Source: Candidatus Iainarchaeum sp. (GTDB taxonomy: Archaea; Iainarchaeota; Iainarchaeia; Iainarchaeales; JAAZKV01). Taken from it: a stretch of 64,000 bases of DNA. The notes under the pieces were generated by a model. It was not told where the DNA came from and did not search any database. It saw only the letters and a program-made list of their open reading frames with translations. The position numbers and the translations under genes were made by a program. Below, one piece after another: positions 42,836-64,000 of the stretch; position 1 is the stretch's first letter; each line of letters begins with the position of its first letter. The DNA lies in the NCBI GenBank assembly GCA_026397015.1, contig JAPLVR010000003.1, positions 45,414 through 109,413 of the forward strand, read 5' to 3'.

Positions 42836-42843
42836 TAAACCAC

Positions 42844-43073: not shown

Positions 43074-43088
43074 AAAAAGCAATTTGAT

Positions 43089-43592: not shown

Positions 43593-43602
43593 CCAAACAC
43601 CT

Positions 43603-44133: not shown

Positions 44134-44260
44134 AAACCACCACCTGAACTAAGAAACGACTAAGTAATATTTAAACCTTGCTTTCAACTCTTTGGATGGC
44201 AATAACGACACCTTGCCTTCAACTTTTTGGGCGGACAATAACGACTCATTCAAAAAATGT

Positions 44261-44842
44261 TTAACCGCAGTAGCCGTCAACGGTGTCGGTTTCTTTTTTC
44301 AATGCCTTTCCAAAGGAAATTCTGCAGCAGATTTCAACGCACCCCTGCGGCTGGCAGATATCGGAACCGTCAACGCTCACCATATCCTGACCGCAACCTG
44401 TCTGGCATGGAACGTCAGGATGATATGGTTTGCAAAGCGCATAAACTTCTGCTTCTACCGGTTGCTCAAATGTGATGGAAGACTTATCATCGGAAATTTT
44501 TGCACCTGCCAAATTGGATTCGAAGTTGAAAGAAGCGGGGTCTTTTCCGGTGAGGGCTGAAAGGGCAGTTGACGTGTAACCCTTTCCGCTCGGAAAAAAA
44601 AGCGCCCGCGAAGATTCTATTACTTCTCCGCTCGGAGTATTGATTGCGGAGAGCACGAGCTCGTTAAATTCCTTGGTTGAAATGCTTGTTCTCATTTGCT
44701 GGAACTGATAAATTGCGGCAACAATTATTACGAGGACAACGAACATTATTATTGAGTCAACCATAAGTCTGAAAACGGCGCCGGCCTGCGCTTTTTCTTC
44801 AAAAAACAATTCCCTCATAAAAGCACCGACCATTGTTTCCAA
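44261..44842 (-). CDS. Pilin-like protein (class III signal peptide)
   Basis: EEKA/QAGAVFRLMVDSIIMFVVL; Cys-rich C-terminus; alternative ATG at 44818. Confidence 0.75.
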   Translation of the reverse strand: METMVGAFMRELFFEEKAQAGAVFRLMVDSIIMFVVLVIIVAAIYQFQQMRTSISTKEFNELVLSAINTPSGEVIESSRALFFPSGKGYTSTALSALTGKDPASFNFESNLAGAKISDDKSSITFEQPVEAEVYALCKPYHPDVPCQTGCGQDMVSVDGSDICQPQGCVEICCRISFGKALKKETDTVDGYCG

Positions 44843-44853
44843 ATTTTCTCCAT

Positions 44854-47286
44854 TCAGCCCTGCGTGAGTATCATCGAAATCATCGTATTCCCTGCGTAAA
44901 CCGTTGCAACGAAAACGAGCACCGCGATTGGCAGCGCCTTTGCCAGATTTATCTTGAAAAGCAAATCGTTGTCCTCCTGTATTTTTGTGGTAAAGTAAAT
45001 CATTATTATCACAATTTCGGCGACATAAATTCCTATTATCAGGAGGAATGCCAGCGGCGTTGCAAAGGTTTTGAAAACCGCGGGCTTAATGTCAAACATC
45101 GCCCCGATATTTGTGAGCGAGGTAACGTTGCTGCCCGCAACATTTGTAGTAGCATCCGTGGCGATGTTTGGCGCAACCGGATCCGATACCAAACCCGCAA
45201 GAGTATTAAGCACAACTTTTTGAAGCGCAACAGTTATTCCAAGAACGATTGGCGCAATAAAAATCGCCATGGTCTGCATGGTCGTTGTAACTTCCGAAAC
45301 AAGGTCCTTCAAACCCTTATTTACCTTGTCAATGTTGTCCATCTGCAATGAGAGGCTCATCAGCGTACGCGAAGCGACTTCAACACCGAGTGAAACCGAA
45401 TCAACAAGCAGGCGCATCGCAGTATTCAGTGTGTCGGAAGGAATGCCTTTCATCGCGCCGTAAACAGGGCTGAATACCGCGGTTTCAAGCGGCATCCCCA
45501 TAAGTTCAATATTTTCAAGCGTTTTTGCAAAAATCCTTTCGCTCACTTTTAAATTAGGAAGAAAATTTTTTGCATGCTTCAGGGCATTTTCAACCGGCTT
45601 ATTTTCACCCATTCTCGAAGCGATGAGATACATGGATTCCTTGAATTCGTCCTCCATCTGCATTATTTCCAGCTGGGCCTTCCTTTTGTAAATATTTCTG
45701 TAATAGAGGAGGAAGGACGCGCCGCACGCAATTGTAATCATTGCGCCGAGCCAAAAAACGTATTTGGTAGGATCGTTTTTCGGATTGCTTGTTAATGTCA
45801 GGAAGCTTTTCGCGACCATCGCATCCGCCATATCATCTTCGAATCCGTTTTGTTTCAGCTGGGCAAAATATGCTCCCTTGGTAGAATCCGAAATATCGAA
45901 AAAATAAAGGTCGATTACTTTTTTGCCGTAATAATCAGGCGACTTGTTCTCCGCCGCCAAAACCTCTTCAAGCGTTTTATCGGCGGGAATTATCTGAAAG
46001 TTCGTTCCCTCTTCGTTTGTTGATAAAAATAAAAATTTTGGCGGAAGCCCCTGCGTCGAAACAAAAAAAGAAATTCCCAACCCGATTACAAGAATTAAAA
46101 CAAAAACCAATCTTGTGTCGATTGAGCCGCCGCTTGTTCTCATGTGCCACTTCTTCGGCAGGCCCATATAGTCGTCATTTATTATGGGAGGCTCGTATGT
46201 CGGCGGCCTTCGCTGAACAACCCCTTTCGCAAAACTGAATGCAACAAAAGGAAGGACTCCGCAAAAAGCTATGAGCAAAATTTCCGGGCGCGAAAAGGGC
46301 TGTCCGGAAAAAGCCGAGCCGACTGGCAGAATTATTATGAGCAAAAGCGGAAGCAATACGCCCATATAGAAAAGCATTATTGAAGGCTGGTTGAGGCTTC
46401 GCGCGTAATCCTCCATTTTGCCTTTTACACTGTCCAAAACCTGCGACATTGTTTTGTCCAGCAGCTGGTATCTGCGCGATTCGCTCGGCTCCATTACGGA
46501 GGCGCGTATCCTCATCAGTGCCTCCTTCAACTCGGAAGAATATTTCCCCCAATTGTAAGCCAACGCATCAAGTCCTTCGCTAACGGAACCATAAACCCCA
46601 ATTTGAAAATCCCACAGCACTTTCTTGAAATCTTTTGCGACTTTTCCCCTTCCGTGTTTTGCGGAAAACTCAATTGATTTTTCCAGATTTGGGACGAGCT
46701 TCATTGACATTATCATATAGCCGACAATCTGGGGAACGTATGTGAGCGCCTTGTTTTTTTCCGCGTCCGCAATCACAATCGGATAATTATAAATGTAATA
46801 AATTATCAACCCCGTAAAGCCGAAAAGAACCCCTGCAAGCATCAAAAAAGTTGTGTTAGTATCGCCGCCGAACATTTCGAAAAGCGGTTGAGAGTATCCT
46901 ATTATTTGGTAGGTATTGTACTCGGGACTTATTTGGAACCCGACGCCGAAAAGATACGCTAAAACCAGCACAACAATTATCGGAAAAAGCGCTGTTGTAA
47001 AAGTTCCTTTTATTCCCGCCGCAAATTCGCCGGCAGTGAGTCGCCATCCCAAAAAATTTATTGCCTCCTGGTGCTTTTCCGAAAACAATGCCCCTTTTCC
47101 AAGGGAAGGATTTTTTTTGTACAACTGCTTGCAGTATTTCACAAAATCGTTGTCCTGCTCAACAACGGATTTGCCGCCCTCATCGTCGAAGGAAATGTCG
47201 CCGAGAGAAGTTATTTTGCTGTAAAGCTGGCCGGGGCTGGCCTCCGGCCCGTATTTATCCCTCAACTCTTTTTTTTTCGACGCCAT
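44854..47286 (-). CDS. Large TadC/ArlJ-like pilus platform protein (two T2SSF-type halves)
   Basis: Multiple TMs; 'PNLEKSIEFSA', 'ENKPVENAL', 'FIAPIVLGI'; follows the ATPase. Confidence 0.82.
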   Translation of the reverse strand: MASKKKELRDKYGPEASPGQLYSKITSLGDISFDDEGGKSVVEQDNDFVKYCKQLYKKNPSLGKGALFSEKHQEAINFLGWRLTAGEFAAGIKGTFTTALFPIIVVLVLAYLFGVGFQISPEYNTYQIIGYSQPLFEMFGGDTNTTFLMLAGVLFGFTGLIIYYIYNYPIVIADAEKNKALTYVPQIVGYMIMSMKLVPNLEKSIEFSAKHGRGKVAKDFKKVLWDFQIGVYGSVSEGLDALAYNWGKYSSELKEALMRIRASVMEPSESRRYQLLDKTMSQVLDSVKGKMEDYARSLNQPSIMLFYMGVLLPLLLIIILPVGSAFSGQPFSRPEILLIAFCGVLPFVAFSFAKGVVQRRPPTYEPPIINDDYMGLPKKWHMRTSGGSIDTRLVFVLILVIGLGISFFVSTQGLPPKFLFLSTNEEGTNFQIIPADKTLEEVLAAENKSPDYYGKKVIDLYFFDISDSTKGAYFAQLKQNGFEDDMADAMVAKSFLTLTSNPKNDPTKYVFWLGAMITIACGASFLLYYRNIYKRKAQLEIMQMEDEFKESMYLIASRMGENKPVENALKHAKNFLPNLKVSERIFAKTLENIELMGMPLETAVFSPVYGAMKGIPSDTLNTAMRLLVDSVSLGVEVASRTLMSLSLQMDNIDKVNKGLKDLVSEVTTTMQTMAIFIAPIVLGITVALQKVVLNTLAGLVSDPVAPNIATDATTNVAGSNVTSLTNIGAMFDIKPAVFKTFATPLAFLLIIGIYVAEIVIIMIYFTTKIQEDNDLLFKINLAKALPIAVLVFVATVYAGNTMISMILTQG

Positions 47287-47355: not shown

Positions 47356-49683
47356 TTATTCTTCTTCTTTTTTCTTTCCTTCTTCTTTTTCGCTGCTGAA
47401 CCGCGGAATCGCAACAGTATTTACCCAGTTCTTCCACTGGCCGAGCAATTGCTCGTAGTTCGCCTTGCCTTCTTCCTCAATCATAATTTCTTTCATAAGA
47501 AGCAATTTGTTGGAACAGAGAGAAGTGCACTCGGCTTCAAGCAGGCTCGGAAGCTTCAATTTGTTTTTTTGCTCCACGAGGAAGAGCTTTGCATTCCCCC
47601 TAAGCCTTATGTCTTCCCAGATTTCATTGACCGTCATGCCCGAAGTTTTTTGGACCTTCTGCAGCAACTCGCTTTCCTTTAAATTGTCTTCCATTAATTC
47701 GAGAGAATCTTTTGCGGCGTCATAGCTCATCAGAGAAAGCAGCCCGCCTTCGCGCTCGGGGTCATCGTTCCAGTGCTTCTTTATTTCGGTAATTTCAACA
47801 ACACGCCTGACTCTTTGGGAGCTTCCCTTAAATCTTATCGGCCTTGCAACGACAACCAAATCCGTCGCCTTAAAGGAAGTGGTCGGAACTTCCAAATCAT
47901 TTACAACACGGTCCCAAACGGAGTAAGCGGAATCCGCGTGAATGGTTCCGAGAACAACATTTCCGGCGGCGCCGATTCTCATTGCTTCGTACAAAACTTT
48001 TGCTTCTTTGGACCTTACTTCTCCGATTATCAGCGCGGAATCACCCAGACGCAGCGCCGTTCTCAGCGCTTCTTCCGGCGCAACTTCTGTTTCGGTTTTT
48101 GAAACGCTAATCGGGCTCCTTGTTTTCAGGCGCTGAATATTGAAGCCGACTTCTTTCATGTAATCAATCGGAAGTTCAAGTGTGTCTTCCTGAACTATTA
48201 TTCTCGAGTTCATCGGGATTTCAAGCATGACTGCACTGAGAAGGGAAGTTTTTCCCGAACCCCTTGAACCGGCAATAAGTGTTGTCGCCTGCATATCGGT
48301 AAAAAAACTAAGCAACCCTGCCGCAAGAGGGTTGATGTAATTTACATCTACAAATTGTTCAAGCGTCCACGGAGTTATTTTGTGCAATCTGAAAGCGAAG
48401 GCGGAACCGGAAGGAGAAAGAGGCGGGCCGATTAAAGCGACTCTCGAATCCAAATCAGGAAGGTCGAAATCGAGGACAGGATGCGCCTCGTCAAAAGGCC
48501 TGGCGGACATTGCCCTCATTTTTGAAATCAGCGAATTTGCCTCGTTTTCCGTAAAAGTAACATTTGTCTGGCACTGGCCATAATCCGCATGAACGACATA
48601 AATCGGCTTTCCCCCGATTGGCGCGTCAATATAAATGTCGGTGAGCTTCCTGTCATTCAAAAGAACTTCAAGTATCCCATAACCTACCGTGTAGCGCGCA
48701 ACGACCTGGCCGAGCGCAACCATTTCCTCCGGCGTCAAACGAACTTTATAATATTCCGCGATTTCCTTTATTGTGGATTCGTACATTCTCTCAAAATATC
48801 TGCGCGAAGTCGCAACTGTGCTCAGCGAAGTTTTTCCGGGCTTGTAAGTCGCAACTATTTCACGCGTCTTGCTTAAAACAAAATACTTGTCGGGCGCAAG
48901 CGAATACTCCGGCGGATTTACGAAATAAATTTTTTCAAGTTTATCAGGCTTGGAAAAAATTTGAACTGTTGTGTCCTTTACACCATACTCGTCAAGAATT
49001 TCGAGGTTCTCCATTCCGGCGAAAGAAAGTTTTGAACCGATGAAACTCGGCTTTATTTCCGCCTCAAAAATTCCTTTGTAAATTACTTTCGTATCCGGCA
49101 TTTCCGCCAATTCCGTAAGCAATTTTTTTGCCTTCTGCACAAGCACCGTTTTGTCAAATTCCTGTTTTACCCGCACAAGCGAATCAAGGTAAGGCTCAGT
49201 GCACTCCGCGTATTCTTCGCTGCCCTGCTTTATTTTTTCCTGCTCTTTCCTTAATTCGTTCAACAATGTGAGGTAGGAAAGAATCGGGTCGAAATTAATG
49301 AGGTCATTTGCGATGCGCACCATCACCTGGTGCCTTTCCGGAAAGTACTGTTCGCATTCTTTTGCGGGCTTTCCCAAATGGGAGTAACTCCAAACGCTTT
49401 CCACGTGAAACTTCTGGGAAAGGTTTGCGATTTCCATCAAAATTTTTGTCGGCTCTTCCTCATAAACCCTTTCATAAACCTCCGCCAAAACAATCCTGTC
49501 TGCCTCAACATCCTGAAGGGTTTTCAAAACGTGAAAGCGGCAGTGATGGTCATCCGCTATTGTCGCGGAATAAACACAATTCTTACAGTCGAAAATCAGC
49601 GCGCGCTTTCCGCCGATATCCCTCACGGTGTATTCTCCAACCTTAAAACCGCCAATCTTCATTAAACGACACCAATCGGGCAA
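47356..49683 (-). CDS. Large type IV pilus assembly ATPase with a Cys/His-rich N-terminal extension
   Basis: Walker A GSRGSGKT, QEDTLEL, LRLGDSALIIGEVR, GTIHA; N-terminal CKNC..HHCRFH. Confidence 0.92.
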   Translation of the reverse strand: MPDWCRLMKIGGFKVGEYTVRDIGGKRALIFDCKNCVYSATIADDHHCRFHVLKTLQDVEADRIVLAEVYERVYEEEPTKILMEIANLSQKFHVESVWSYSHLGKPAKECEQYFPERHQVMVRIANDLINFDPILSYLTLLNELRKEQEKIKQGSEEYAECTEPYLDSLVRVKQEFDKTVLVQKAKKLLTELAEMPDTKVIYKGIFEAEIKPSFIGSKLSFAGMENLEILDEYGVKDTTVQIFSKPDKLEKIYFVNPPEYSLAPDKYFVLSKTREIVATYKPGKTSLSTVATSRRYFERMYESTIKEIAEYYKVRLTPEEMVALGQVVARYTVGYGILEVLLNDRKLTDIYIDAPIGGKPIYVVHADYGQCQTNVTFTENEANSLISKMRAMSARPFDEAHPVLDFDLPDLDSRVALIGPPLSPSGSAFAFRLHKITPWTLEQFVDVNYINPLAAGLLSFFTDMQATTLIAGSRGSGKTSLLSAVMLEIPMNSRIIVQEDTLELPIDYMKEVGFNIQRLKTRSPISVSKTETEVAPEEALRTALRLGDSALIIGEVRSKEAKVLYEAMRIGAAGNVVLGTIHADSAYSVWDRVVNDLEVPTTSFKATDLVVVARPIRFKGSSQRVRRVVEITEIKKHWNDDPEREGGLLSLMSYDAAKDSLELMEDNLKESELLQKVQKTSGMTVNEIWEDIRLRGNAKLFLVEQKNKLKLPSLLEAECTSLCSNKLLLMKEIMIEEEGKANYEQLLGQWKNWVNTVAIPRFSSEKEEGKKKEEE

Positions 49684-50484: not shown

Positions 50485-51256
50485 GTGAAAAAAATGGGTA
50501 GCATTGAAAGGGCGCTTTTTTCCGCCTTTAAAAATGACGGGGTTCTTCCGGAGCACCAAAAGTCAATACTCGGTTTTCTTGAAAGGCTGAAAAGGAGGAG
50601 CCGTGAACATTACGCACACTCCGTAAGAACCGCCCTTCTTGCTTCAAAAATAGGCCGCCATCTCAATACCGACCCGAAGGCGTTTCTTTTTGTCGGAGCC
50701 CTTCACGATATCGGAAAAATAAAAATTCCCGGTAAAGTGCTTGGAAAAAAAGGGGCGTTTACAAAAACGGATAAAAAAAATAATGGACAGGCACGTGCTT
50801 TACTCCTATAAAATGCTCAAAAAAATACACCCTTTTTCCGCAGAGATTTCCTTGCTCCACCATTATTACCAGTTAGAAGGCTACCCGAAAAAATTGCCAA
50901 AAAGAAATCCGAAATTTTCCCCTGAAACGTGGAAAAAAATCGAGTTTTACGCAAAGATTCTTGCAATCGCGGACGTTTATGATGCTGCAACAACCAGGCC
51001 CGCAAAGGCGCATGGCTTCAGGAGGCCTCTTGCCCCTGCAGAAGCAAAGGCGTGCCTGATAAAAAAATTTATGGAACCGGAACAAAGAAAAATAATAAAC
51101 TGTTTGTACAGGGCAAAAATTTTTGGCAAAAAAACAAAAATTCCTTCACAAAAAATGCGGGCCGGAAAAACTTTAAAGAAAAGGAAATTTCCTGCAGGCA
51201 AGACAATTGTGCAAACCGGCGGCGGAAGAATTGTAATGCGGCGCATCCGCCGTTAA
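50485..51256 (+). pseudogene. HD-GYP domain phosphodiesterase, split by one extra A in an A8 tract (50773-50780)
   Basis: HSVR and LHDIGK in one frame; HHYYQLEGYP and ILAIADVYDA in the next frame. An A7 tract would give DKKIMDRH in frame. Confidence 0.82.
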
Positions 51257-51318: not shown

Positions 51319-51978
51319 ATGCCCTCAAAAAAAAAATATGCGTTTAAGAAAAAAACCGCGAAACGAAAGGCGGCGCTTCCAGAAAAAATAAAATCGCACT
51401 GGGCGAAACAGGAAGAGAAAATAAGGAAAAGCCAATTGAGGCAATTTGAATTTTTTATTCTCGGTTTTGTTTTATTCTACTTAATTGTTTCAGCGATTGT
51501 TTCAATTGTTCCGCAGAGTTTTTTCGAGGCCCTTACGGGAATGACACTAAAAAGTTTGCTTGCACTGCAGGGATTGGAGGTAAGCGGAGCGATAAAAGCG
51601 GTTGAAGGGTTCGGCGAGGTTTTTGTTCTGCAAATTGGAAGCGGAACGGCGGCAAAAGAAATAATCATTTCATGGCTCTGTTCGGGCACATTCGAAATAA
51701 TTATTTTGGCTTGCGCGATTCTGGCGAGCTTTGGCGTTGAGTGGAGGAAGAAGTTTCACGGAATAGCAGTTGCAATAATCGCAGGATACTTTTTCAATTT
51801 GATTCGCGTTTGGCTCACCGTAAATATTGTGCTGACGCAAAATATCCAAATCGTTGAATTCGCGCATGACTTACTGTTCAGGGCGGTGCTTTTCCTATAC
51901 ATAACAGGATTTTATATTTTATGGTTTTTTTGGGCGGTTGGGGCAACAGAAAAAACAATCGGCAAAAAACGAATTTAA
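51319..51978 (+). CDS. Archaeosortase/exosortase family membrane protease
   Basis: Catalytic pattern ISWLCSG (Cys), FNLIRV (Arg), HDLLFR (His/Arg); multiple TMs; ATG at 51319. Confidence 0.85.
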   Translation: MPSKKKYAFKKKTAKRKAALPEKIKSHWAKQEEKIRKSQLRQFEFFILGFVLFYLIVSAIVSIVPQSFFEALTGMTLKSLLALQGLEVSGAIKAVEGFGEVFVLQIGSGTAAKEIIISWLCSGTFEIIILACAILASFGVEWRKKFHGIAVAIIAGYFFNLIRVWLTVNIVLTQNIQIVEFAHDLLFRAVLFLYITGFYILWFFWAVGATEKTIGKKRI

Positions 51979-52026: not shown

Positions 52027-52311
52027 GTGAAAGTTTATTGGACAAAGCACGCAGTGGAAAGGTTCATAGAAAGGGCGCTGATTCACGGCTTTACCAGAAC
52101 GGAAATAGAAATTATAATAAAAAAACAGGAAGTCAGAATTCCAAAAGGGCTTGATGAAAAATATGGCAAAAACAAATTTGAAACTATCGGTTTGGTTGCC
52201 GGAAAATATTTAACCGTGCAAAAGGCAGAGGGCAAGGAAAACATTATTGTAATTACCCTATGGGAATCAAAGGAAAAGGAGGTTAAAATATGGCTTTCAA
52301 AACAAAAATAA
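52027..52311 (+). CDS. Putative toxin, DUF4258/RelE-like RNase
   Basis: 'WTKHAVERFIER' and C-terminal 'IIVITLW'; overlaps the partner gene. Confidence 0.7.
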   Translation: MKVYWTKHAVERFIERALIHGFTRTEIEIIIKKQEVRIPKGLDEKYGKNKFETIGLVAGKYLTVQKAEGKENIIVITLWESKEKEVKIWLSKQK

Positions 52312-52634
52312 AATGCCCAATATGCGGGGGAAACGCAATCCTCTCAAAAGCGGGCATGGAAACGATGAATGGCCTCATAAGGATAAAAGACAATCCGGTT
52401 TACGAGTGCCAGAAATGCAAAGAAACGGTTGCAAGCGGCGAGATGGTTGACAGGGCGCTTGAAAAGGCAAGGCACCAATTCAACTTTGAGAGGCAGATAA
52501 TTTCCACCGGCGGCTCGCTCGCAATAACACTGCCGACGGACGTTTCAAAATACTACCGCCTAAGCAAGGGAAAAACAATCCAAATAATACCGCAGGCAAA
52601 GAATGAATTCAGAGTAATAACGCAAAAGCAATAA
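52290..52634 (+). CDS. Putative antitoxin: YgiT/MqsA-type zinc ribbon plus AbrB/MazE-like domain
   Basis: CPICG..CQKCKE; 'STGGSLAITLP..LSKGKTI'. Confidence 0.75.
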   Translation: MAFKTKIKCPICGGNAILSKAGMETMNGLIRIKDNPVYECQKCKETVASGEMVDRALEKARHQFNFERQIISTGGSLAITLPTDVSKYYRLSKGKTIQIIPQAKNEFRVITQKQ

Positions 52635-52805: not shown

Positions 52806-55800
52806 TTGATTTCCGAGAAGTTGGCCGGCTTTTACACAAGGGTTGAAGACAAGTACTTTGATTTCCTTGATTTTTTAGACGCAAAAGGCATGCCCGTTTA
52901 CAAATACTCCGATTTTTTCGAAAACAAGGGAATACCGAGTTTTATTGTCACAGTTGCGATTCTTGTTCTGCTGATTACTTTGATAAGTGTTGGCCTGGCG
53001 ATGAGCGTGCCGGCGACGCAGCAAATAGTTCTGATGCTGAGGGATGCGGAGGGAAATCCGTTGCAGGGAGTAAGTGTAACAGTTTTGAATATGAGCGGGG
53101 AAACTATCGCCGGACCGTTGGAAAAGAATGACGGCGACACAATCGAAATCCCGAAACTGCCGCAGGGAACGAAAGTTAAGCTGATTGCGAGCAAGGACGG
53201 CTACCAGATAGGAGATGCTGAAATTGCGCTCGGAACAGAAATTGCAACCGGAACGTTATCGCTCGAACCCGCATTCGAAGGAATAAACGCAATCCTGAAT
53301 CTTGTTGATGCCGAAAACGGAACAAACATTACCGGAGCCACAGCGATGGCAACCTGGAACGAAATGCTTTTCAATTTTGACACAGACAACAACGGAAACT
53401 ACATTAAATCCGGAATGCCCGAGGGAAAAACTGTTACTCTTACTGCGGAAGCGGACGGCTACGACGGGCTTTCGACCACAACAACTTTCTATGATAAAAG
53501 CCCGCGAATTTTTAAGATGACCCCTTCGAGCCAGGGATACGACCAAAAATCAAATGTAATTGTCACTGTAAAGGACTCGGCCGGAAACACAATCGATGGC
53601 GCAAAAGTAACTCTCATCAACAAGGCAAATGAGGTAATTCTTTTAGAGGATTACACAAAACAGGGAAGCGTTGCGGGCGCAATACAAACTGGAATTGTGC
53701 TAAAAATAATTGTTGAAAAAGACGGTTACCTTCAATATGATTCAGAAAGTGAAGCGAAACTAATAACGCTAAGGGAAAAAGAAAGGCAGATAGACGTTGT
53801 GCTAAAACAGGGCGGGGAAAAATTGAATGTTCTTGTTACAAACAAGCTCGGCCTCGCGCTTGAAAACACGAGCGTTCAACTTTATGATATTCAGGGAAAC
53901 CTTATTGATGCGGGAAAAACAACTGTAAGCGGAATCGAATTCGGAGGCCTTGATTCAAATGAAATGCTTATTGTTACGGCGCATCACGAAGGATATCTTG
54001 CGCAGAGAAAAAAGGTAAATGTCGCTTCAACGGAAGAGGTAACTTTCGCGCTCGAACCCGTAACCGGCAACAATTCCGCAGCGCTCGATATTTTTGCGGT
54101 CGATGAGTTTGCGCAGGTGGTAAACGGAGCGAATGTAGCAATCTATATTAATGAAGACGGAAACATGCTGCCATACGGTTACTCAGAACTTGTAACGCCG
54201 ATAACCGGATATGTGCGCGCGACTGTGGAAAGCGGAAAAATTTATGAGGTCAGGGCGGAAACGGCGGTGCTCCAGGGAGAAACAAGCGCGCAAGTTCCGG
54301 GGAAAACGCCGGTGAAGGCGTACGTCATAATGAAAAAGAAGGCGCAGATACTTGAAATGATTTTTGAGGGCCCAAAGGGGGAAAAAATCTACGGAACGGC
54401 GGAAGTAAATACGATTGAGGGAGAACCTCTCTACGACGGAAATATTTCAAATTCAAAAATTTTCTTCGACGCGGAAGGAAAAGAAGTTGTTGAAGTAATA
54501 GTTTACCTTTCCGATGGAAACATGTTTTCCGAGAATGTAAATGTAAAAGGAAAAGACACTGTAACGGTTGTGGTTTACGGTGGAACTGTAGATGCGCTGG
54601 CGCCGAAAATCGAATTTGTGGGCCTTGAGGATGAGGCTGGAAATGAAATCGGCGGAATTACGCCGGGTGCTTTTTATTGGGCAAAATTTTCAGTAACGTT
54701 CCCTCTCGGGGCGGAAAAAGGCGGGGTCCATTTTAGAATTGGAAACGATGCTGTTAAGTTTGCTGAATCTGGCAACGGCGCAATATTTGAGCTGGGCATG
54801 CAGGGCGCCAACACTTTTTATTCTACTTCATACTCCCCAACGCCAGCGCCGGGAAATGAAACGATCGACAGAGCAAATGCAGGGGATGTTGGAAATGCAA
54901 ACAAATGGGTCGAAGGGACTCTTGGCCAGCCGAACGGAACTTACATCGCAAAAGTAAAAATAAGAGTGAGCGATTACACCGCCGGAACAATCGATTTGAA
55001 ATACAGGGCGTGGGGAATAAACCAAACAAGCTATTACAGAAATCCGGAAGACATTTCGCTTGGAAACAATGCATTTACGGATGCGAAAAGCGGGCTCTAC
55101 GCGGAGGCAAGAGTTCAACAGTTGAAGCTTTACGAATCATTGCCGGAATGCAGCGGAAACATTTGCCTCGCATTAAATTTCCTTGACGGCGATGGAAAAT
55201 TTTACGATACCACCGCGTTCCAACCAATAAAAGGAAATGTTTATGCTCTTGAAGCGGAAGTTTCAGTGCAAGAGGGGGAAACAGTTGAGATGACAGTTTC
55301 TTCCCCTGAAAAAATAAAGTTCACTTCAGTACAGAAAGTTGCGGCAGGGTCTTCAACAGGATTTTCCGGAAGTGAAACGGGAGGAACAACGAGCGGCTTC
55401 GGCGGAGGAAACGGAACAACCACTTATGGAACAGGCACAGGGGATTCCAACACGGGAATTTCAACGGGGCTTGTGGACAGGGCGACAGCGAGCGGCGTTC
55501 CTGAAGTTTTTTCTCAAAAGAAAAGCAAATTGAGTTTCGCGGCAACGGACACGAATTACTTCCCAACAACACTGGGTTCAAGCAGCGACATACAGGGGAT
55601 GGTTCCAAGGGGCGCCGGAACGACTGGTGGATTAGCGGGAACAAAAGAGATGACGACACGCGTCACGATAGGGCCAGGAGGAAAACAAAGAATAAGATTT
55701 TATTTCGTGGGCGATGATCTTGGAGCGGCCCAGATAAATTTCAAAGCAGTCGGAAGCACTCAAATTGAGAAAGCAATTTCATTCAACATTGTCGCACAAA

Positions 55801-58800
55801 AAGAACTTCTTGTAGAGCTCAGCAAGGACCAGGTAAATTTGGGGGAGGCTTTCACGGTAAGGGTCAGGGACACAAATTCTGGGCCGATTGAAAACGCGCT
55901 GGTAAAAATAGTGGACAAAAAAGGTGAGGCAATAAAAAGCATTTCCGGAACTGGAAAAATAGACGAGGGGAAAAGTGGAAATTATAAGGTCGCAAATAAT
56001 TTTGATGCCGGCCTTTACACTGTGCAGGTCAGCGCGCCGACTTATCCGACAAAAGAAGTTCCCTTACTTATTACCACAAAAAATATTTTGGATTTCCCCG
56101 ATACAATAGAAGTCAAAATGCCTTTCAATCAAACGCAATCAGTTGTGAGCCCTCAACCGCAGTTACTAAACAATTCTGAGTTTCAGCTGCTTAACATCAC
56201 TTATGAATTAAATGGAAACGACAAAAACAAGGACAATGAAATAAATAATTTCAAATTTACAATCGGCCTTCCGCCCGCATTGGGAAAGAACGGAAAAATA
56301 ATGGTGCCGATAACTGTTAGTTACACCGGAAACGTTTCGGATTCGGCGGACGAAACCGCTACGCTCACAATAAAGGCGATGATTGAAGGAAAATTTTTGA
56401 CGCAGATAAGTTCGAAAGTGCATGTTTCTTACAACAAAAAAATGGATGAAGCGTGTTTGAAGATAGAGCCTTCAAGCGTCACAATAAATCTGATAGGAAC
56501 CGCGGAATCAACGGATTCTGAAACGGTTGAAGTTACAAACGGATGCGAACAAACGCTGATGATGAAAAAAAGGGTAAAGGAAAACACGACAAAATCTTAC
56601 ATAATAGTTGATTCCGAAGAGTTGAGCCTCGAAGTCGGCGAAACAAAAAATGTTACAGTTACTGCGAGAAACTTAATTGACAGAAAGTTCCAGCGCGACA
56701 ACAGTTTCAGTTATGAAATAATTTGGGACGCAAATTATTTGACGAAAAGATTGCCTGTTACTGTAAAAACAATAAATCCGAGCATGGCGCTGAGTTATCC
56801 CGGCCAAATAACTTTGTGGCTGGCGCAAAACTCGCAGAATGCAAAGGCAACTGCTATGCAGCCAATCTTTGTGACGAATATTTCAAACTTCCCCGTAGAG
56901 GGAATAACTTTCAGCGCCCAGCGCGATTATGGAAGCGGAACGAATGTGAGCTTAAGCATTGAGCCGCCCGGAACAATAACTCTTGAAAAAGGGCAATCCG
57001 CTGCAAAAAACGCCTTCGCGCAGGCGGCTTCGGTAATAACCGAGCCTGTGAGAGCTTCAATTCTGATAAGGGGAAGGATGGGAAACCTAGACAACAGGAG
57101 CGGCCAGAGAGACGGCTACGGGTATTATGAAAATTATTACAATGATTATTACAATCAGTACGAAAACTCCAGCGGCACAACGTTGACAAATAACATAAAC
57201 ACTTACGCGCCGGCAACAAATGTTTACACAACGGGAATGGAAGACCTCGGAGTAATTGATGTGATGATTTATTACTCTGGTTTCAATTGTTTCAAAGTTT
57301 CGCCGATAGATGATATGACATTCAATATTTCGAGCGCGGGCGCGCAGATAGCGAAAAGGGTTGCGATACAAAACGACTGTGCCGAACCCGTTACGGTAAC
57401 GGGCGTTGTTGCAAAAACGCCTGAAGTAATTCTTAGCATTTACCCCCAAGTAACTGTCGGAGTAAAACAGAGAGTAGAGGCAATGATTACTGTTACGCCG
57501 AGAACGGCACTCGGAAGATTTGCCGATGCGATTGATGAAAGCAAACTCAATAATCCAAATGCAATTTTCTTTGCGGAAGATCCGTGTAAAGACGTGTTAT
57601 GTGATGATGGCAACCCGTGCACGGAAGATACCTGCTCTAATGGAAACTGCTCGCATACAAAAAAAGCCGACGGCACTTCCTGCGGCGAGGGAAAAACATG
57701 CAAAAATGGTTCCTGTGTCACAGCAACGCCAGTTGCTCCGACAACTACCCCGCCGGTAACGACACCCACTACCACTCCTTCCACAACAAAACCGTCAAGT
57801 GCAAGCATTTCGCCGGCATCAACAAGAATCCCAAATTATCCGATAGTAATAGTCGGAATAACTTCCATAAGTCAAACTCCTTTGGAAAGCAAGCCGATAA
57901 CAATTTCTGTTTATTCCGACCAGGACGGCGCGGGACAATTCAGCAAAGTAAACAAGGGCGTAAAAATTTCTGTTTGCGGAAAAACGGAAAAGGAAAGCGT
58001 TGATTTCCCGAAAACGGGTTCGAACTGTGCGGAAAACTACTGCGACGGAAAAACAGCCGCAAAATATTTGGGGCAGAAATTGAACACGATGATAAAAAAT
58101 GCGGAATCCGCAGGATACTCAAAACAGAATCTTACCGAAAATTTCGGATGTGAAAATCAAGGGTATTGCACATTCGGCGCGCTCGGAATAAAGAAAGAAA
58201 CAATTCCGCTTTATCTGCAAAACGACAAGATAAGCGATGAATCATTAAGCGAAAGCCTGCAGGAGCAGAGCAGCGGCCAGACAACCGGATTCAGGGGGAT
58301 AACGGGAATCGGAAATTATTTAATCGAGCCTTTTGAAGTTACGAATGAAACCATAAGCATGATTGCGCAGGCGGGATCATACCCGAGAAGAATTTTCCTT
58401 GACAATGCCCTGAAAGGATGCGGATTTTACAGAATAAGTATTGACGGGGCGTTCCCTGTTTCCGGCGGGCAAATAATGTTCACGGAACCAGTCATTGTAA
58501 TAAAGGCCGAGGACTTCGGCTCCGGCAAAAGAATTGACACAAAGGAATGCACCAGCAACATAATCAATATTTCAAACTTCAATCCTGTGGACGAGGGATA
58601 CACTGCGGGAGATAGCAAGGGCACAATGCTTGCAACAGTTGGAGGAGGCTCGAAGCTTGATGAAATTGCAAAAAGGGTTGCGAAAGAAAGATACAAAGAT
58701 GAAACAAGAAACAGTTCAACAGGGCCGGGAGCAAGAGTTGAAATAAAAGAGGGCCCAGTTGAAGAAGCGCTGGCACAGGTATGCATGGGCACCGGAGGAG

Positions 58801-61760
58801 ACGCAAAAACAATCAATGTAACCGTGAGCACGGATATTGCAAAGCTTGCAAAATCTAAGGGAACGGATTCGGCAAACGCTTATGTGCAGGTTGCGAAAAT
58901 GGTTTCCGATACGCTCGGAGGAAACTTCGGAGAAACAAACTGCGTCACAAAAGGAGCAACAGGATATGAATGCGTAAAGCTCACGGATCCGAGCGGGCTC
59001 GGAACATTAAAGATGAACATTCCTGAAAAAACGATGAACCTTTCGCAGACCGAAGGATGCGTGCTTGGAAAAGTTGTTTCCGGGGTTGTGGAAAGCGTTG
59101 AGTTCGAAATTGAGCAGGGAAAAGAATTCAAGGGGATAACAAAAATAACAATAAGAGATTCAGCCAACAAAACTGTTTACAAAGAAGTTACTTACGATGG
59201 AACGGTGCTTAAAGATGAGAAGCCCGGAGTTCCGATGGTGCTTGAATACGGCAACAAAAAAGACGAACCTTACTCAAAAGAAATCTCAATTTGCGCCACG
59301 GCGGGAAGCGACAAGACTCCGGAAGGCAGCCCCGGTTACCTTGAAGCAAAGGGATCGAGTTTCGTTGTAACGGCGATAAATAAAAATGCCGGCGGAGACA
59401 GGCACACGAATGCGGAAGACGGAACTGTCACGATAGGAATTGCGACACTGCACATTGATGACTTGGCGGACAAGCTTTACAATCAAAAAGATACTTTCAA
59501 AAACAAGGGCATGGACCACCCGTACTATTTCACAATACAATGGATGGGCGACCCCGAAGTTCTTAATTTCAAGGATTATTTAGAAGGGCTTGCCGCTTTG
59601 AAACAAATGCCTACTGCAGTAATAAAGAGCATGGATCAGGGATACGGATTAACAGAAGCAGGGGACGCACTTGTAAAAGCCGGCAAAAAAAGCGCAATCA
59701 ATCAATACCTGATGGGGTGCGCTGGAACAACCATTGCATGCGACGCGTACACGGGCCCCTTTAACACCCTCATAGGTTTGCTAACTAACTGCGGAATTCC
59801 TGCTGGAACAATGTTCAAACAGGATTTGGTTGAAAATTATGAATTTTTCAGAGGAGGGTACAATTGGCTTTCTAAAAATCTGCCATTCGGCGGCTCAATA
59901 TTCGACCTCTCACCGAAGATGGACAGAACACAGCCGTCATGGTCGCCGATAAAATCTCCTGCAATAGGAGTTGGAGTCGCAAGCGCAGGAGCCGCAAGGG
60001 CTTTAAAAGTAGCATCGAGAATGTCAGGCGGGCTTAATCCCGGGCTTATAAATTCGATGAGCGACCTATTGAGTTCGCAATACAGAGAAGGCGCACAAAA
60101 ATTACTCACGGGATCGGGACTTTCCGCGGCGGATGAAAAAGCAATATTGGACGGTTATGCTGCGGAACTAAAAAGTTCACTAAAAACACAATTGACTGCG
60201 GATTATACAGCCGCAAGAAACGCTGGCAGGGGAAAAGTGACAGGATTGATGTCAGATTTCGGCGTTGCAAAAGATGCCGAAGCCAAACTAACTACCGCGT
60301 TGGGAAGTGCGAATGAGGCCGCAAACAAAAAGTTTGCTTCGCTTTTGAAACAAAAAATCGGAAGCGCAAACACCGTTGATGAGCTTTTGGCAAAATTCAG
60401 CAATGTGGAAGCAAAATCTGTTAAGGATGTAATAGAGTTGGCTGGAAAAAGCAATTTGGAAACACTTGTAAAAATGGGCGGCGACTTTGATGCAAGGGCG
60501 GAAATGCTTAGCAGCTGGAGCGCGACAGCAGATGTTTATGCGCCCGCCGACAGGTGGAATCCTGTTCCAGCATTGGTTACCTCAAGGGTTTCAAACGACG
60601 CGATAAAAAGAGAAATAGAAAGCATGGTAGATGAAATACTGGATAAAACAACTCTTTCTGCGGCAGACAAACTTACGAAGCGCGGAAACATGTTAAGCCA
60701 ATTAATCGGTGGAGGCACTCCCGCTGAAGTTGAGACGTTCAGAAGCACCATAACAAGTGCGAATAACGCAAAAAGCATAATCGGAAGAACTTTCAGGAAC
60801 AACCTTGGAACCATAAAGGGAACGCTTGAACTCACCGAAGGGCAAGTTGACAACATGCTGAATACCGCTGCAAAAACTGCTTCAAAGAATGCCGGCACAG
60901 CCGCAGACACCATTGCCGCTTCAAAAAAACTTTCAAACGTGCTCAAAAGCAGCCTGAAGGGATTGGCAAGGGGAATCGGCTGCGGGATAGCGGCAAACGC
61001 AGTCGGAATTTACATGTACAATCGTTCGCTCGGAGTTACCGGAAGCAGCATGGCGAAGGAAAGCCTTGAAACGAAGGATTTCCTTTTCATCAGGGGGCAC
61101 ACATACAAAATGATAATTGAGCCGGGAGAAGACAACAAAGGAACACTTACTAAATTTGAGGAAGTTACAGGCGATAAGTTCAACCAGATGCTCCTTGATT
61201 TAAGACCTGACAGCAAAAATGAAAAGAAAGGAACGATACTCACTTCGACCCCTACAAAAGACGGAAGGTATCCGGAGCAGAGGCCGCCGAAATTATATTT
61301 AATTACGAGAAATCCTGTTCAGATGAAACAGGAACTGGTAAACGCAGGGTATAACAACGAAGAAATAAACACGAAACTTTCAAGAATAGTGAGGCCCGAA
61401 ATTCAGAACCTGATATTCAGGTATACTGCGGAAAATGATTTGAGAAAAAATCCGAACAAGCAGAGAGTAATTGTCGGTAGCCAGCCTGCAAATGAGGCGC
61501 TTGCAATAACAATAATAGAGGCGGGCTGGAGCGAATACACCGAAGAAAAAAGAAATGAGGAACTGAAAAACGGCGACGGCTGGCTGAAGAATAAGTTGAC
61601 AATCGCGCTCGGGGAGATGCCAAACACGGGCGGAAAAATTACAAAAGAACTAGGAAGAAAAGTTTTCCCTAACAAGGACGACAAGTTCTACGAATTATTC
61701 GAGAAAGACGGAACTGCGTTTGGCAATGTCGGTGTTTGGAACGGGCACCTTGGAAATTAA
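52806..61760 (+). CDS. Giant (2984-aa) N-terminally anchored surface protein
   Basis: Cytoplasmic leader plus TM; repeated carboxypeptidase-regulatory/prealbumin-like units (V.D..G..I.GA.V, KDGY); Ig-like domains; Cys-rich repeat; Pro/Thr linker; C-terminal helical region; GGGGTG SD before TTG. Confidence 0.9.
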   Translation: MISEKLAGFYTRVEDKYFDFLDFLDAKGMPVYKYSDFFENKGIPSFIVTVAILVLLITLISVGLAMSVPATQQIVLMLRDAEGNPLQGVSVTVLNMSGETIAGPLEKNDGDTIEIPKLPQGTKVKLIASKDGYQIGDAEIALGTEIATGTLSLEPAFEGINAILNLVDAENGTNITGATAMATWNEMLFNFDTDNNGNYIKSGMPEGKTVTLTAEADGYDGLSTTTTFYDKSPRIFKMTPSSQGYDQKSNVIVTVKDSAGNTIDGAKVTLINKANEVILLEDYTKQGSVAGAIQTGIVLKIIVEKDGYLQYDSESEAKLITLREKERQIDVVLKQGGEKLNVLVTNKLGLALENTSVQLYDIQGNLIDAGKTTVSGIEFGGLDSNEMLIVTAHHEGYLAQRKKVNVASTEEVTFALEPVTGNNSAALDIFAVDEFAQVVNGANVAIYINEDGNMLPYGYSELVTPITGYVRATVESGKIYEVRAETAVLQGETSAQVPGKTPVKAYVIMKKKAQILEMIFEGPKGEKIYGTAEVNTIEGEPLYDGNISNSKIFFDAEGKEVVEVIVYLSDGNMFSENVNVKGKDTVTVVVYGGTVDALAPKIEFVGLEDEAGNEIGGITPGAFYWAKFSVTFPLGAEKGGVHFRIGNDAVKFAESGNGAIFELGMQGANTFYSTSYSPTPAPGNETIDRANAGDVGNANKWVEGTLGQPNGTYIAKVKIRVSDYTAGTIDLKYRAWGINQTSYYRNPEDISLGNNAFTDAKSGLYAEARVQQLKLYESLPECSGNICLALNFLDGDGKFYDTTAFQPIKGNVYALEAEVSVQEGETVEMTVSSPEKIKFTSVQKVAAGSSTGFSGSETGGTTSGFGGGNGTTTYGTGTGDSNTGISTGLVDRATASGVPEVFSQKKSKLSFAATDTNYFPTTLGSSSDIQGMVPRGAGTTGGLAGTKEMTTRVTIGPGGKQRIRFYFVGDDLGAAQINFKAVGSTQIEKAISFNIVAQKELLVELSKDQVNLGEAFTVRVRDTNSGPIENALVKIVDKKGEAIKSISGTGKIDEGKSGNYKVANNFDAGLYTVQVSAPTYPTKEVPLLITTKNILDFPDTIEVKMPFNQTQSVVSPQPQLLNNSEFQLLNITYELNGNDKNKDNEINNFKFTIGLPPALGKNGKIMVPITVSYTGNVSDSADETATLTIKAMIEGKFLTQISSKVHVSYNKKMDEACLKIEPSSVTINLIGTAESTDSETVEVTNGCEQTLMMKKRVKENTTKSYIIVDSEELSLEVGETKNVTVTARNLIDRKFQRDNSFSYEIIWDANYLTKRLPVTVKTINPSMALSYPGQITLWLAQNSQNAKATAMQPIFVTNISNFPVEGITFSAQRDYGSGTNVSLSIEPPGTITLEKGQSAAKNAFAQAASVITEPVRASILIRGRMGNLDNRSGQRDGYGYYENYYNDYYNQYENSSGTTLTNNINTYAPATNVYTTGMEDLGVIDVMIYYSGFNCFKVSPIDDMTFNISSAGAQIAKRVAIQNDCAEPVTVTGVVAKTPEVILSIYPQVTVGVKQRVEAMITVTPRTALGRFADAIDESKLNNPNAIFFAEDPCKDVLCDDGNPCTEDTCSNGNCSHTKKADGTSCGEGKTCKNGSCVTATPVAPTTTPPVTTPTTTPSTTKPSSASISPASTRIPNYPIVIVGITSISQTPLESKPITISVYSDQDGAGQFSKVNKGVKISVCGKTEKESVDFPKTGSNCAENYCDGKTAAKYLGQKLNTMIKNAESAGYSKQNLTENFGCENQGYCTFGALGIKKETIPLYLQNDKISDESLSESLQEQSSGQTTGFRGITGIGNYLIEPFEVTNETISMIAQAGSYPRRIFLDNALKGCGFYRISIDGAFPVSGGQIMFTEPVIVIKAEDFGSGKRIDTKECTSNIINISNFNPVDEGYTAGDSKGTMLATVGGGSKLDEIAKRVAKERYKDETRNSSTGPGARVEIKEGPVEEALAQVCMGTGGDAKTINVTVSTDIAKLAKSKGTDSANAYVQVAKMVSDTLGGNFGETNCVTKGATGYECVKLTDPSGLGTLKMNIPEKTMNLSQTEGCVLGKVVSGVVESVEFEIEQGKEFKGITKITIRDSANKTVYKEVTYDGTVLKDEKPGVPMVLEYGNKKDEPYSKEISICATAGSDKTPEGSPGYLEAKGSSFVVTAINKNAGGDRHTNAEDGTVTIGIATLHIDDLADKLYNQKDTFKNKGMDHPYYFTIQWMGDPEVLNFKDYLEGLAALKQMPTAVIKSMDQGYGLTEAGDALVKAGKKSAINQYLMGCAGTTIACDAYTGPFNTLIGLLTNCGIPAGTMFKQDLVENYEFFRGGYNWLSKNLPFGGSIFDLSPKMDRTQPSWSPIKSPAIGVGVASAGAARALKVASRMSGGLNPGLINSMSDLLSSQYREGAQKLLTGSGLSAADEKAILDGYAAELKSSLKTQLTADYTAARNAGRGKVTGLMSDFGVAKDAEAKLTTALGSANEAANKKFASLLKQKIGSANTVDELLAKFSNVEAKSVKDVIELAGKSNLETLVKMGGDFDARAEMLSSWSATADVYAPADRWNPVPALVTSRVSNDAIKREIESMVDEILDKTTLSAADKLTKRGNMLSQLIGGGTPAEVETFRSTITSANNAKSIIGRTFRNNLGTIKGTLELTEGQVDNMLNTAAKTASKNAGTAADTIAASKKLSNVLKSSLKGLARGIGCGIAANAVGIYMYNRSLGVTGSSMAKESLETKDFLFIRGHTYKMIIEPGEDNKGTLTKFEEVTGDKFNQMLLDLRPDSKNEKKGTILTSTPTKDGRYPEQRPPKLYLITRNPVQMKQELVNAGYNNEEINTKLSRIVRPEIQNLIFRYTAENDLRKNPNKQRVIVGSQPANEALAITIIEAGWSEYTEEKRNEELKNGDGWLKNKLTIALGEMPNTGGKITKELGRKVFPNKDDKFYELFEKDGTAFGNVGVWNGHLGN

Positions 61761-61873
61761 TCCGGCAACCAAATCAAATCCGCGCCAAATTTAGTTGCCA
61801 TTAACATAACAGACATTTGCTGAATCAAATAGGTAAGCTTTTTAACAACTTAAAACATTTTCCTAATGATTTC

Positions 61874-63412
61874 ATGCTTTTCAGGGTTAATGGCAAAGGA
61901 TTCAACCTTTTTTCCGCGCTTGTGGCGATGGTGCTGATAATAATAGGAGTCCTGCTTGTGAACATGATGGTTTTCAGGGAGGCGAACACGCGGACACAAA
62001 TATATTCGATGAAAGAAAACTTCGGCTTGGCTGACGCGGCGAACATTGCGAGGGCGGATGCGATACAAAGCTTCAGCCATTATTTCAGAAGGGAATTGGA
62101 AATGTACCTGACGTCCGACGGATCAGAAAGCGCTTTTCAACCGCTGCTGAAAATAAGAAAAAATCCTGACGGCCAAATCGAAAACAATTTTGAAAACTGG
62201 GGCGACGTGGTAAAAGAATTTGAAACGCAAATACTTCTCACTCCAAGCGGCTCCGCCAATAATGAAGAAAGATACAAGGCTGTTGCGAGGTTTGTTGCGC
62301 TAAACATAATAAACAAATTCGGAACAGGGCAGGAGGGAACATACGGAAGATACAGGGTAAGCCTCAGCGAACTCGGAACCCCTGCACAAAAAAAAGTCGA
62401 AACCGCTTTTTCAAATGCGATTAAAAAAGTTTTGGACGACCCGACCCATAACATCCAAACATTTTTTGAAATTGTGGACTGCGACAATACTGCGTGCCCG
62501 GTTGGAACTTTTTATTTCAATTTCCCGCTGGACCAGATGAGCACGGAAGATTACGAAAACCTTCCAAGAATAGTTGTGAGCGACACACACACAGGCGAAA
62601 AAATACAAATTCCGCTTTTGCCGCAGGAAAAATTACGAATTTATATTCCGATAAGATTCCTAAAGGCCGCGTACGAGGCGAGAAGAGTCGCAATGGAATA
62701 CAACGACCTTGGAATAGGGGACGAATTGAAAAGTTATCGCCTCGGCTTCTGCGAATACGGCGTATGCGGGCCAAGAAATAATCCTGCCACCCCTGCACCA
62801 GGGGATAGGGAAAATAGTTATTGCCCCGAAAGTGAAAATGATTCTCCTGCAAACAAGGAAAAACTTTTGGGCCCTGCGACACTTTTTAATCTTGATAAAT
62901 ATACTGTTGGAGGAGAAAAGCCCGGCGACTTGGAATTGGAAGCGTCGGCAATTGGCGAGCTGGCGAACAATTTTAGTGCGGACCCGGGCAGCCCGGGAAA
63001 TCCCTGCAGCCCTTCCGGCGGCTGCGACTTTGTAAATGAAACAATTGAAAAAAATGATTTTTTTACTAATCCTGGAAACGGGCCCATTGGAGTAGATGGA
63101 TTCCCGTTTAAATACGTCAGCACGCCGAGAAAAACCTACATCACAAAAACAATTCAGGGAACGGGCTCGGATTATGATCCCGCAGCCGGAAAAAAATTGT
63201 ATTGCACCCAGATAAATTCCGTTTCAATAAAAATGCTCTTCAGGGAAAAAAACAAAAATTACATTCTGAACGGAGAATCCGGCAACGGCGAAAATCTCTA
63301 CGGAATAGAATTTACCGATGATACATTTGCGCAAGAACCCGATCGCACCGGAGAATTCTGCATAAACGACAAAACTGCAAATTCAGGCACTGGAAGATGC
63401 TATTCAGGATAG
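61874..63412 (+). CDS. Large pilin-like protein (class III signal peptide), possible tip adhesin
   Basis: MLFRVNGKG/FNLFSALVAMVLIIIG, helical extension, Cys-rich C-terminal domains; ORF open from 61817. Confidence 0.7.
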   Translation: MLFRVNGKGFNLFSALVAMVLIIIGVLLVNMMVFREANTRTQIYSMKENFGLADAANIARADAIQSFSHYFRRELEMYLTSDGSESAFQPLLKIRKNPDGQIENNFENWGDVVKEFETQILLTPSGSANNEERYKAVARFVALNIINKFGTGQEGTYGRYRVSLSELGTPAQKKVETAFSNAIKKVLDDPTHNIQTFFEIVDCDNTACPVGTFYFNFPLDQMSTEDYENLPRIVVSDTHTGEKIQIPLLPQEKLRIYIPIRFLKAAYEARRVAMEYNDLGIGDELKSYRLGFCEYGVCGPRNNPATPAPGDRENSYCPESENDSPANKEKLLGPATLFNLDKYTVGGEKPGDLELEASAIGELANNFSADPGSPGNPCSPSGGCDFVNETIEKNDFFTNPGNGPIGVDGFPFKYVSTPRKTYITKTIQGTGSDYDPAAGKKLYCTQINSVSIKMLFREKNKNYILNGESGNGENLYGIEFTDDTFAQEPDRTGEFCINDKTANSGTGRCYSG

Positions 63413-63600
63413 TTTTCCAGAAAAGCTTACTTACTATATATTCTTACCATAGTATTAGCTACAGTTCATACCTTACATTGATTGAAAACTTGGCAGCGAA
63501 AAAATAGCCGAAGAAAACGATTCCCATTAACAGTTAGATTAATATAGATTGGTGGAAGTAATATTATTTAGTTAACAAGTGGTTTGCTGATAGTGATTTG

Positions 63601-64000
63601 ATGGGTATAACCGATTCCTTGAAGGACGCTTATTTCAAAATAGAGGATAAGTGGTATAACTTTGTTGACCGCGTTTCGGAGATGCTGCCGATTTTTGGAA
63701 ACGCCGTTGATGCCGTTGAAGAAAAAGGAATCCCGAGTTTGCCGCTTGCGATCGCAATAATTATTCTGCTTATTTTCGGAATTTATCTGGTCTTCATGAT
63801 GGGGGCAAGCTCCACGCTCACAATCGTTGTAAAAGACGCGGGAGAAAATCCACTGGCGGATGCAGAGGTAACTGTGTTCTTGAATGGAATTGCGCAGAAT
63901 CCGAGAAGCACCGACGCGGACGGAAGAGTCGCAATCTACCTCGCAAACGGGAATTACAAAATAAAAATCGGAAAAGAAAATTATTCCCCCCAGGATCTTG
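63601..64000 (+). CDS. Partial surface protein, N-terminal paralog of the 2984-aa protein (runs off the window)
   Basis: Manual translation MGITDSLKDAYFKIEDKWYNFVDR..VEEKGIPSLPLAIAIIILL..TIVVKDAGENPLADAEV; no stop before the window end. Confidence 0.85.
   Translation, partial: MGITDSLKDAYFKIEDKWYNFVDRVSEMLPIFGNAVDAVEEKGIPSLPLAIAIIILLIFGIYLVFMMGASSTLTIVVKDAGENPLADAEVTVFLNGIAQNPRSTDADGRVAIYLANGNYKIKIGKENYSPQDL

Follow-up and report, generated by a model that had tools for sequence, protein, structure and literature searches.

A predicted disulfide-tied apolar stem carries a hypervariable, cysteine-free insert at the tip of a giant surface protein of Iainarchaeales

Results

We analyzed a 64,000-nucleotide window of the genome of Candidatus Iainarchaeum sp. 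(899 kb, 85% complete; contig JAPLVR010000003.1, positions 45,414 to 109,413, our contig C5), and focused on the C-terminal tip of Giant 1, a surface protein of 2984 amino acids (aa) that is encoded there by an intact and genuine open reading frame (ORF). Two apolar regions lying far apart in the tip, segment 1 (a hairpin of helices H1 and H2) and segment 3, likely form a single stem that is locked by deduced disulfides and bears a hypervariable, Cys-free insert. Our tentative first choice for its function is that the apolar stem closes a split beta domain and docks harpoon-like into the membrane of a partner cell, rather than acting as a free pore-forming toxin. Two other readings, a soluble stem and a second anchor in the membrane of the archaeon itself, come close, and what has good support is the architecture alone.

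Architecture of the stem

A sequence-only reading of this DNA had described a beta-rich stalk giving way to an alpha-helical region, and AlphaFold2 confirmed this switch. The model of aa 2181-2984 (predicted local distance difference test (pLDDT) 74; predicted template modeling score (pTM) 0.58) contains confident helices at 2284-2316 and 2318-2336, segment 2 at low confidence, and a 42-residue helix through segment 3 followed by a beta unit and a confident helical tail. Folding aa 2181-2415 and aa 2695-2984 as two chains gave a score of 0.63, with 0.00 for the best control. This mark is attained by 116 of 157 solved complexes and by 2 of 215 mismatched pairs, counts that are only rough for this alignment, and it is passed more easily here than by separate proteins, as our two chains are parts of one chain. 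The runs have at least 69% of their contacts in common, with a partner pLDDT of at least 78, and we found no solved structure resembling the two-chain stem model. In the model, strand 2240-2244 pairs with 2764-2769, H1 runs along segment 3, and 2312 and 2726 are both interface residues. We therefore favor reading the helical region as an insertion borne on a stem, which rises out of a split beta domain and has the tail at its foot.

We examined these two residues in an alignment of C-terminal regions from 59 orthologs, reduced to 58 when the split gene L054 was dropped; the contig-truncated L037 and L046 had been left out. Both C2312 and C2726 are present in 34 orthologs and neither in 24, and the positions are thus concordant in 58/58. 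In a FastTree phylogeny built from the upstream region, each position changes 7 times, and independent pairs agree in 5 of 5 cases (p 0.0625; n = 5 cannot attain p 0.05). It is this covariation, together with the packing of the two flanks into one domain, that leads us to propose one disulfide-locked stem. The predicted packing and the C2312-C2726 tie also speak for a soluble stem. Here, the Gly/Ala helices would pack mutually or on the glycine-zipper hairpins of neighboring giants and display the insert outside the cell, for host recognition or as a decoy, beside a wall-binding tail. This is possible too, if slightly less so than docking.

Apolar segments

Three Gly/Ala-rich hydrophobic segments had been noted at the free end of the protein. 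They are present (aa 2305-2334, 59718-59807; aa 2386-2400, 59961-60005; aa 2717-2738, 60954-61019) and lie near the C terminus, but about 245 aa follow them, and in this copy they are weakly hydrophobic. Their Kyte-Doolittle (KD) peaks are 1.07, 1.17 and 1.15, respectively, similar to several beta-strands of the stalk; a value of 1.07 is reached by 8%, and 1.17 by 5%, of 45-aa windows from this genome's cytosolic-like proteins. A Sec-inserted transmembrane (TM) anchor is expected to have a 19-residue KD mean above about 1.6. The N-terminal anchor, the sole strong TM helix of Giant 1, reaches 2.94, and all three segments fall below the threshold in this copy. Across orthologs it is exceeded in 23/58 hairpins, 1/58 for segment 2 and 1/58 for segment 3. 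With maxima of 2.05 for the hairpin and 1.67 for segment 3, none of the stem helices is strongly hydrophobic, as would be expected of helices requiring prior export.

Segments 1 and 3 are nevertheless conserved as apolar, small-residue helices, and we take them to be more than chance because of this conservation. The segment 1 hairpin has a median KD peak of 1.54, a value that 0.3% of cytosolic windows reach. Helix H1 has no polar face (mean charged fraction 0.03; hydrophobic moment low, at 0.21), with a charge-free run of at least 18 residues in 52/58 orthologs. C2305, C2329 and G2734 are invariant. Segment 3 keeps a stripe of small residues (G2723, G2727, a small residue at 2730, G2734) along with N2731. 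Apolar character is not conserved in segment 2: its column mean KD is 0.16, and position 2394 is charged in about 60% of rows. It appears to be the opening helix of the bundle formed by the insert itself.

The marginal hydrophobicity of this copy is in line with a soluble stem. Alternatively, the stem may anchor Giant 1 a second time in the membrane of the archaeon itself. The giant would arch back, the stem would cross or dip into the membrane, and the Cys-free insert would reach the archaeal cytoplasm, with the secretion ATPase of the locus as a possible coupling partner. We consider this somewhat less likely than the two other readings: segments 2 and 3 surpass the anchor threshold in just one ortholog each, Lys or Glu occurs mid-helix in several orthologs, and a mid-stem disulfide would form more easily outside a membrane.

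Hypervariable insert

A helical stretch of about 300 aa had been described as bracketed by the segments, and indeed about 316 aa lie between segments 2 and 3 in this copy. The C2329-C2726 interval spans 265-652 aa across the orthologs. The bracketed region proved hypervariable among homologs, a point that the sequence-only reading had raised for checking: its identity to this copy is 9-18% between C2329 and C2726 (21 sequences), compared with about 30-65% for most ungapped stalk bins, and a same-genus ortholog shows 26-46% identity over the tip versus 67-79% over the stalk. An amphipathic helix comes after H2, and in 54/58 orthologs the 26 residues preceding C2726 carry a net charge of at least +3. 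The insert is devoid of Cys in 55/58 orthologs, compared with 17/164 cytosolic-like and 10/44 helix-rich windows of this genome; Cys density per 100 aa is 0.95 in the stalk and 1.48 in the tail. The insert of L096 and L099 is long and resembles a coiled coil. The lack of Cys in the insert, the basic stretch and the amphipathic helix count as signs of a membrane, and the rapid change of the tip is in keeping with docking.

A soluble stem leaves both the exclusion of Cys from the insert and the conserved basic cluster before segment 3 unexplained. Moreover, the best fold matches of the insert in VIA-align correspond to a bundle of its own (aa 2388-2523), suggesting that it does not wrap the stem. 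Fast evolution is in turn unexpected for a domain facing the cell's own cytoplasm, as a second anchor would require.

Tail slot and peptidoglycan enzymes

Pfam identified peptidoglycan enzymes in 4 of the 57 tails scanned: SLT in L082 and L048, Amidase_3 with glucosaminidase and NlpC/P60 in L049, and Amidase_2 in L052. SLT was found in 60/196 Iainarchaeales genomes. In six further giants chosen for an SLT match, the domain follows directly after segment 3 and the beta unit in all six, with a GDSL hydrolase behind it in four and an Amidase_2 in one; four of the six match the tip profile, while L096 and L099 match the stalk profile only and their segments were seen by eye. One family (L096, L099, L103, L111) has the Giant 1 tip with SLT and a GDSL/SGNH hydrolase, the latter possibly, at a guess, a peptidoglycan O-acetylesterase. 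The tails of some other families look like decayed SLT domains, as judged from hhalign comparison with intact SLT tips (E 2.5e-5 and 1e-3) and a weak match to MltC in the PDB (E 0.44-1). Short tails occur in 9/58 orthologs; two of these belong to the window's family, and there a contig end or a frameshift may account for the break. The tail of the window's family is conserved, and its model is confident (pLDDT 90.8). Many orthologs have an acidic repeat of the D-x-D-G-D-G type directly after segment 3 (tails L047, L048, L050, L051, L069, L070). It is probably calcium-binding, and its position suggests that the side after segment 3 is extracellular.

Peptidoglycan enzymes beside the module in orthologs fit contact with the envelope of another cell. 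In lineages keeping the enzymes, at least, this partner would be bacterial. The predicted geometry, with an enzyme slot at the foot of an apolar stem and a basic helix and a Cys-free insert at the far end, is what one would expect of a stem that penetrates a membrane under peptidoglycan. If the stem were anchored in the archaeon's own membrane, the wall enzymes would instead be at the foot of a 2,300-residue stalk.

Locus, distribution and paralogs

Giant 1 is found order-wide in Iainarchaeales (DPANN) as a single-copy gene, and its locus is of the pilus type (Table 1). A profile of its last 804 residues matches in 144/196 Iainarchaeales genomes, including 49/55 of the high-quality ones; a wider Giant 1 profile matches in 162/215 genomes of the phylum, all within Iainarchaeales among the matches listed. 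Among 1.84 billion representative proteins we found 111 matches, most with ortholog-like length and match position. The protein has CarboxypepD_reg/Ig-like repeats in addition to the N-terminal TM helix. Gene order is kept, with a divergent FlaI/TadA-type ATPase, an exosortase-family gene, Giant 1, a pilin-like gene and Giant 2.

Table 1. Coordinates of Giant 1 elements and neighboring genes in the window
Feature	Position	Strand	Remarks
FlaI/TadA-type secretion ATPase	47356..49683	-	divergent; syntenic across many loci
Exosortase/archaeosortase-family gene	51319..51978	+	upstream of Giant 1, conserved in family
Giant 1, 2984-aa membrane-anchored surface protein	52806..61760	+	single copy, conserved order-wide
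N-terminal transmembrane anchor, aa 46-64	52941..52997	+	after conserved leader common to paralogous giants
Strand aa 2240-2244 of split beta base domain	59523..59537	+	predicted pairing with aa 2764-2769 beyond the insert
Segment 1, apolar helix-turn-helix hairpin	59694..59813	+	H1 aa 2297-2316, H2 aa 2318-2336; C2305 and C2329 invariant, C2312 covarying
Hypervariable Cys-free helical insert, aa 2346-2710	59841..60935	+	starts with amphipathic helix; includes segment 2 (59961-60005) and predicted bundle aa 2388-2523
Basic amphipathic helix, aa 2708-2722	60927..60971	+	insert side of segment 3; aromatic-rich in most orthologs
Segment 3, glycine-zipper helix	60954..61019	+	aa 2717-2738; G2719/G2723/G2727, C2726, N2731, invariant G2734; predicted packing on H1
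Second half of split beta base domain, aa 2760-2786	61083..61163	+	AlphaFold2 and two-chain model
C-terminal helical domain	61251..61757	+	slot holding lytic transglycosylase in other orthologs; no enzyme match in this copy
Downstream gene, pilin-like N-terminus	61817..63412	+	class III-type signal peptide by eye; after Giant 1 in most loci
Giant 2 start (2461 aa)	63598..64000	+	first of three further tandem paralogs

Elsewhere in the window, the secretion ATPase is followed by a run of small genes whose N-termini look pilin-like by eye and by a gene for an 810-aa membrane protein (39919-47286, - strand), and a second ATPase with two membrane partners lies at 28135-31353. Just 5' of Giant 1, a pair of DUF4258-like and zinc-finger/antidote-like genes (52027-52634, + strand; weak matches) looks like an inserted toxin-antitoxin module. 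An HD-GYP-like gene runs over two overlapping frames (50485-51256, + strand), where a same-genus relative has a single 257-aa ORF. In this copy, the Giant 1 stalk carries an inserted Cys-rich Dictyostelium-type repeat (about 57580-57720, aa 1594-1637) that is absent from most orthologs and recurs at two other sites in the genome. Giant 1 is split into two ORFs at L054:3593-11646 (break inside the tip) and at L103:58-8000 (break mid-stalk).

The genome encodes six paralogous giants, four of them in tandem, and three of these four contain Cys-clamped Gly-rich helices. In Giant 3 (L041:11151-19331; orthologs L159-L165), two such helices surround a long, partly helical loop (aa 1425-1914) that contains 2-15 Cys in 8/8 complete orthologs; 13 further loci are incomplete. 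In sequence terms this clamp favors an exported loop, and a soluble stem in Giant 1 gains from it, as zipper helices can evidently flank an apparently exported loop. Giant 4 (L116, G000:C5:126278-133312; orthologs L117-L146) has a Cys-clamped glycine-zipper hairpin at aa 1425-1491. Its turn comprises a few residues in some orthologs and, in others, a Ser/Thr/Gly-rich Cys-free loop of up to several hundred residues. Among 30 loci, 10 have the short turn, with helices of up to KD 3.5, 15 have the long Cys-free loop and 5 are incomplete.

Discussion

The models suggest how the Giant 1 tip may be built and used. The chain is predicted to exit the base domain via H1, to fold back as H2, to carry the insert and to return via the long segment 3 helix on H1, with the tail domain at the stem foot and the insert and basic helix at the far end. 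Contact with a partner may be aided by the pilus machinery of the locus. The tail slot, presumed to hold an active transglycosylase in some lineages and a non-enzymatic domain here, would then meet the partner's wall; the stem would enter the membrane beneath it, and the basic helix and insert would come to lie on the inner side of that membrane. Since segments 1 and 3 are predicted to be packed and disulfide-tied, the hairpin would not swing out freely as in colicins.

Several observations weigh against such docking. To span a membrane fully, the stem would require a further apolar helix, its fourth, beyond H2, a role for which segment 2 lacks the conservation. Among the orthologs, segment 3 is short, with charges in some, and its charge-free run attains 18 residues in just 22/58. 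Glycine-zipper helices had been proposed from the sequence, and segment 3 does hold GxxxGxxxG in this copy, itself among the least hydrophobic of the orthologs; the strict zipper recurs in only 9/58, and a relaxed form in 27/58. Wall cutting by this copy is not supported, and its link to wall enzymes is positional: the tail has no SLT match in Pfam, the family profile compares with intact or decayed SLT tips at E 0.14-0.49, Foldseek of the tail model gave a best E of 1.6 with no lysozyme-like row among the matches listed, and the genome, 85% complete, yielded no PF01464 match. The Giant 4 hairpin pattern favors anchoring of Giant 4 in the cell's own membrane, as far as sequence can tell. Finally, no host for Iainarchaeota is established in the portions of the literature covered by our search.

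Searches for membrane-inserting relatives point the same way. Pfam and PDB sequences yielded no significant match to a pore-former, translocator or fusogen. Foldseek of the 804-aa tip model gave a best E of 0.42, with ClyA at E 1.8 and a probability of 0.04, although so large a query may hide single domains. The top 50 VIA-align rows of this model included no pore-former, translocator or fusogen, and Atlas matches reached at most 0.82, at low recognition, with no membrane-inserting protein. A PHROG search returned 0 families for this copy and, for other members, only single-member, mostly endolysin-type matches. The proposed likeness of the tip to pore-forming or translocator domains is therefore not borne out by any of the sequence or fold comparisons, fusogens included. 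The soluble reading is helped by the finding that no membrane-protein match in VIA-align rises above background. A true pore-former, translocator or fusogen, making an oligomeric channel in the target membrane alone or with the Giant 3/4 hairpins, is highly improbable: an apolar hairpin, amphipathic helices and a helical bundle do recall the general layout of alpha pore-formers, and Cys-clamped Gly-rich helices recur among the tandem giants, but these searches found no homolog or fold match, and in 34/58 orthologs a predicted disulfide ties the hairpin to segment 3. The earlier idea of membrane insertion itself remains plausible, though not as a recognizable pore-former.

A core single-copy gene, wall enzymes at the tip in several families and a tip that evolves much faster than the stalk point to contact with bacteria. 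One may speculate further, against the odds, that Iainarchaeales carry an order-wide contact apparatus aimed at bacteria, in which tandem giants and pilins reach the prey, the Giant 1 tip opens or grips peptidoglycan, and the stem, perhaps with the Giant 3/4 hairpins, enters the bacterial membrane and delivers the hypervariable Cys-free domain into the host. Such an archaeal machine for breaching envelopes would have no kinship with known secretion tips. If the stem is merely structural, the finding reduces to another large DPANN surface protein. As the boundaries of stem and insert are now defined, membrane insertion can be assayed directly.

We compared the Giant 1 tip to known systems. Alpha pore-forming toxins and translocators (colicin pore domain, ClyA, type III SctE/SctB) combine an apolar hairpin of marginal hydrophobicity, amphipathic helices and a helical bundle, all of which have counterparts in Giant 1. 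No sequence or fold match to them was found for Giant 1, whose hairpin is predicted to be disulfide-tied to a distant helix and whose tip sits on a 2,300-aa stalk. In phage tape-measure and ejection proteins, an Ala/Gly-rich helical region with marginal membrane segments is followed by an exchangeable SLT, amidase, NlpC/P60 or glucosaminidase domain. Giant 1 resembles them in having a helical region with marginal segments followed by exchangeable wall hydrolases; it differs in being a core chromosomal surface protein with putative disulfides, and in having no PHROG match outside the enzyme domains.

DPANN are reported to have peptidoglycan hydrolases, and Omnitrophota to have giant predatory proteins (PMC12352652, PMC9723730, PMC10936187, bioRxiv 10.1101/2023.11.21.568195); Iainarchaeota may be free-living according to the introduction of PMC10936187. 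The 'Archaeovorins' of Omnitrophota (bioRxiv 10.1101/2023.11.21.568195) are described as anchored proteins of very large size, encoded close to genes resembling those of type II secretion and in some cases containing SLT, for which prey adhesion and wall digestion were proposed; unlike Giant 1, these are bacterial, about ten times longer and built of other domains. A search of titles, abstract openings and passages, with most subscription papers outside its reach, found no published description of this locus or stem. Closest are the fam00969 giants (Castelle et al. 2021, PMC8204110), extracellular DPANN proteins that reach about 3,000 aa, contain a lytic transglycosylase domain and were reported to occur specifically in Woesearchaeota and Pacearchaeota; a role in attachment to, or degradation of, bacterial walls was proposed for them. 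Compared by description only, Giant 1 is likewise large, with an N-terminal anchor, CarboxypepD_reg repeats and, in several orthologs, SLT at the tip; unlike fam00969, it is confined to Iainarchaeales and has no detectable SLT in this copy. The stem-and-insert module of Giant 1, a real and conserved feature, is not mentioned for fam00969 in the passages covered.

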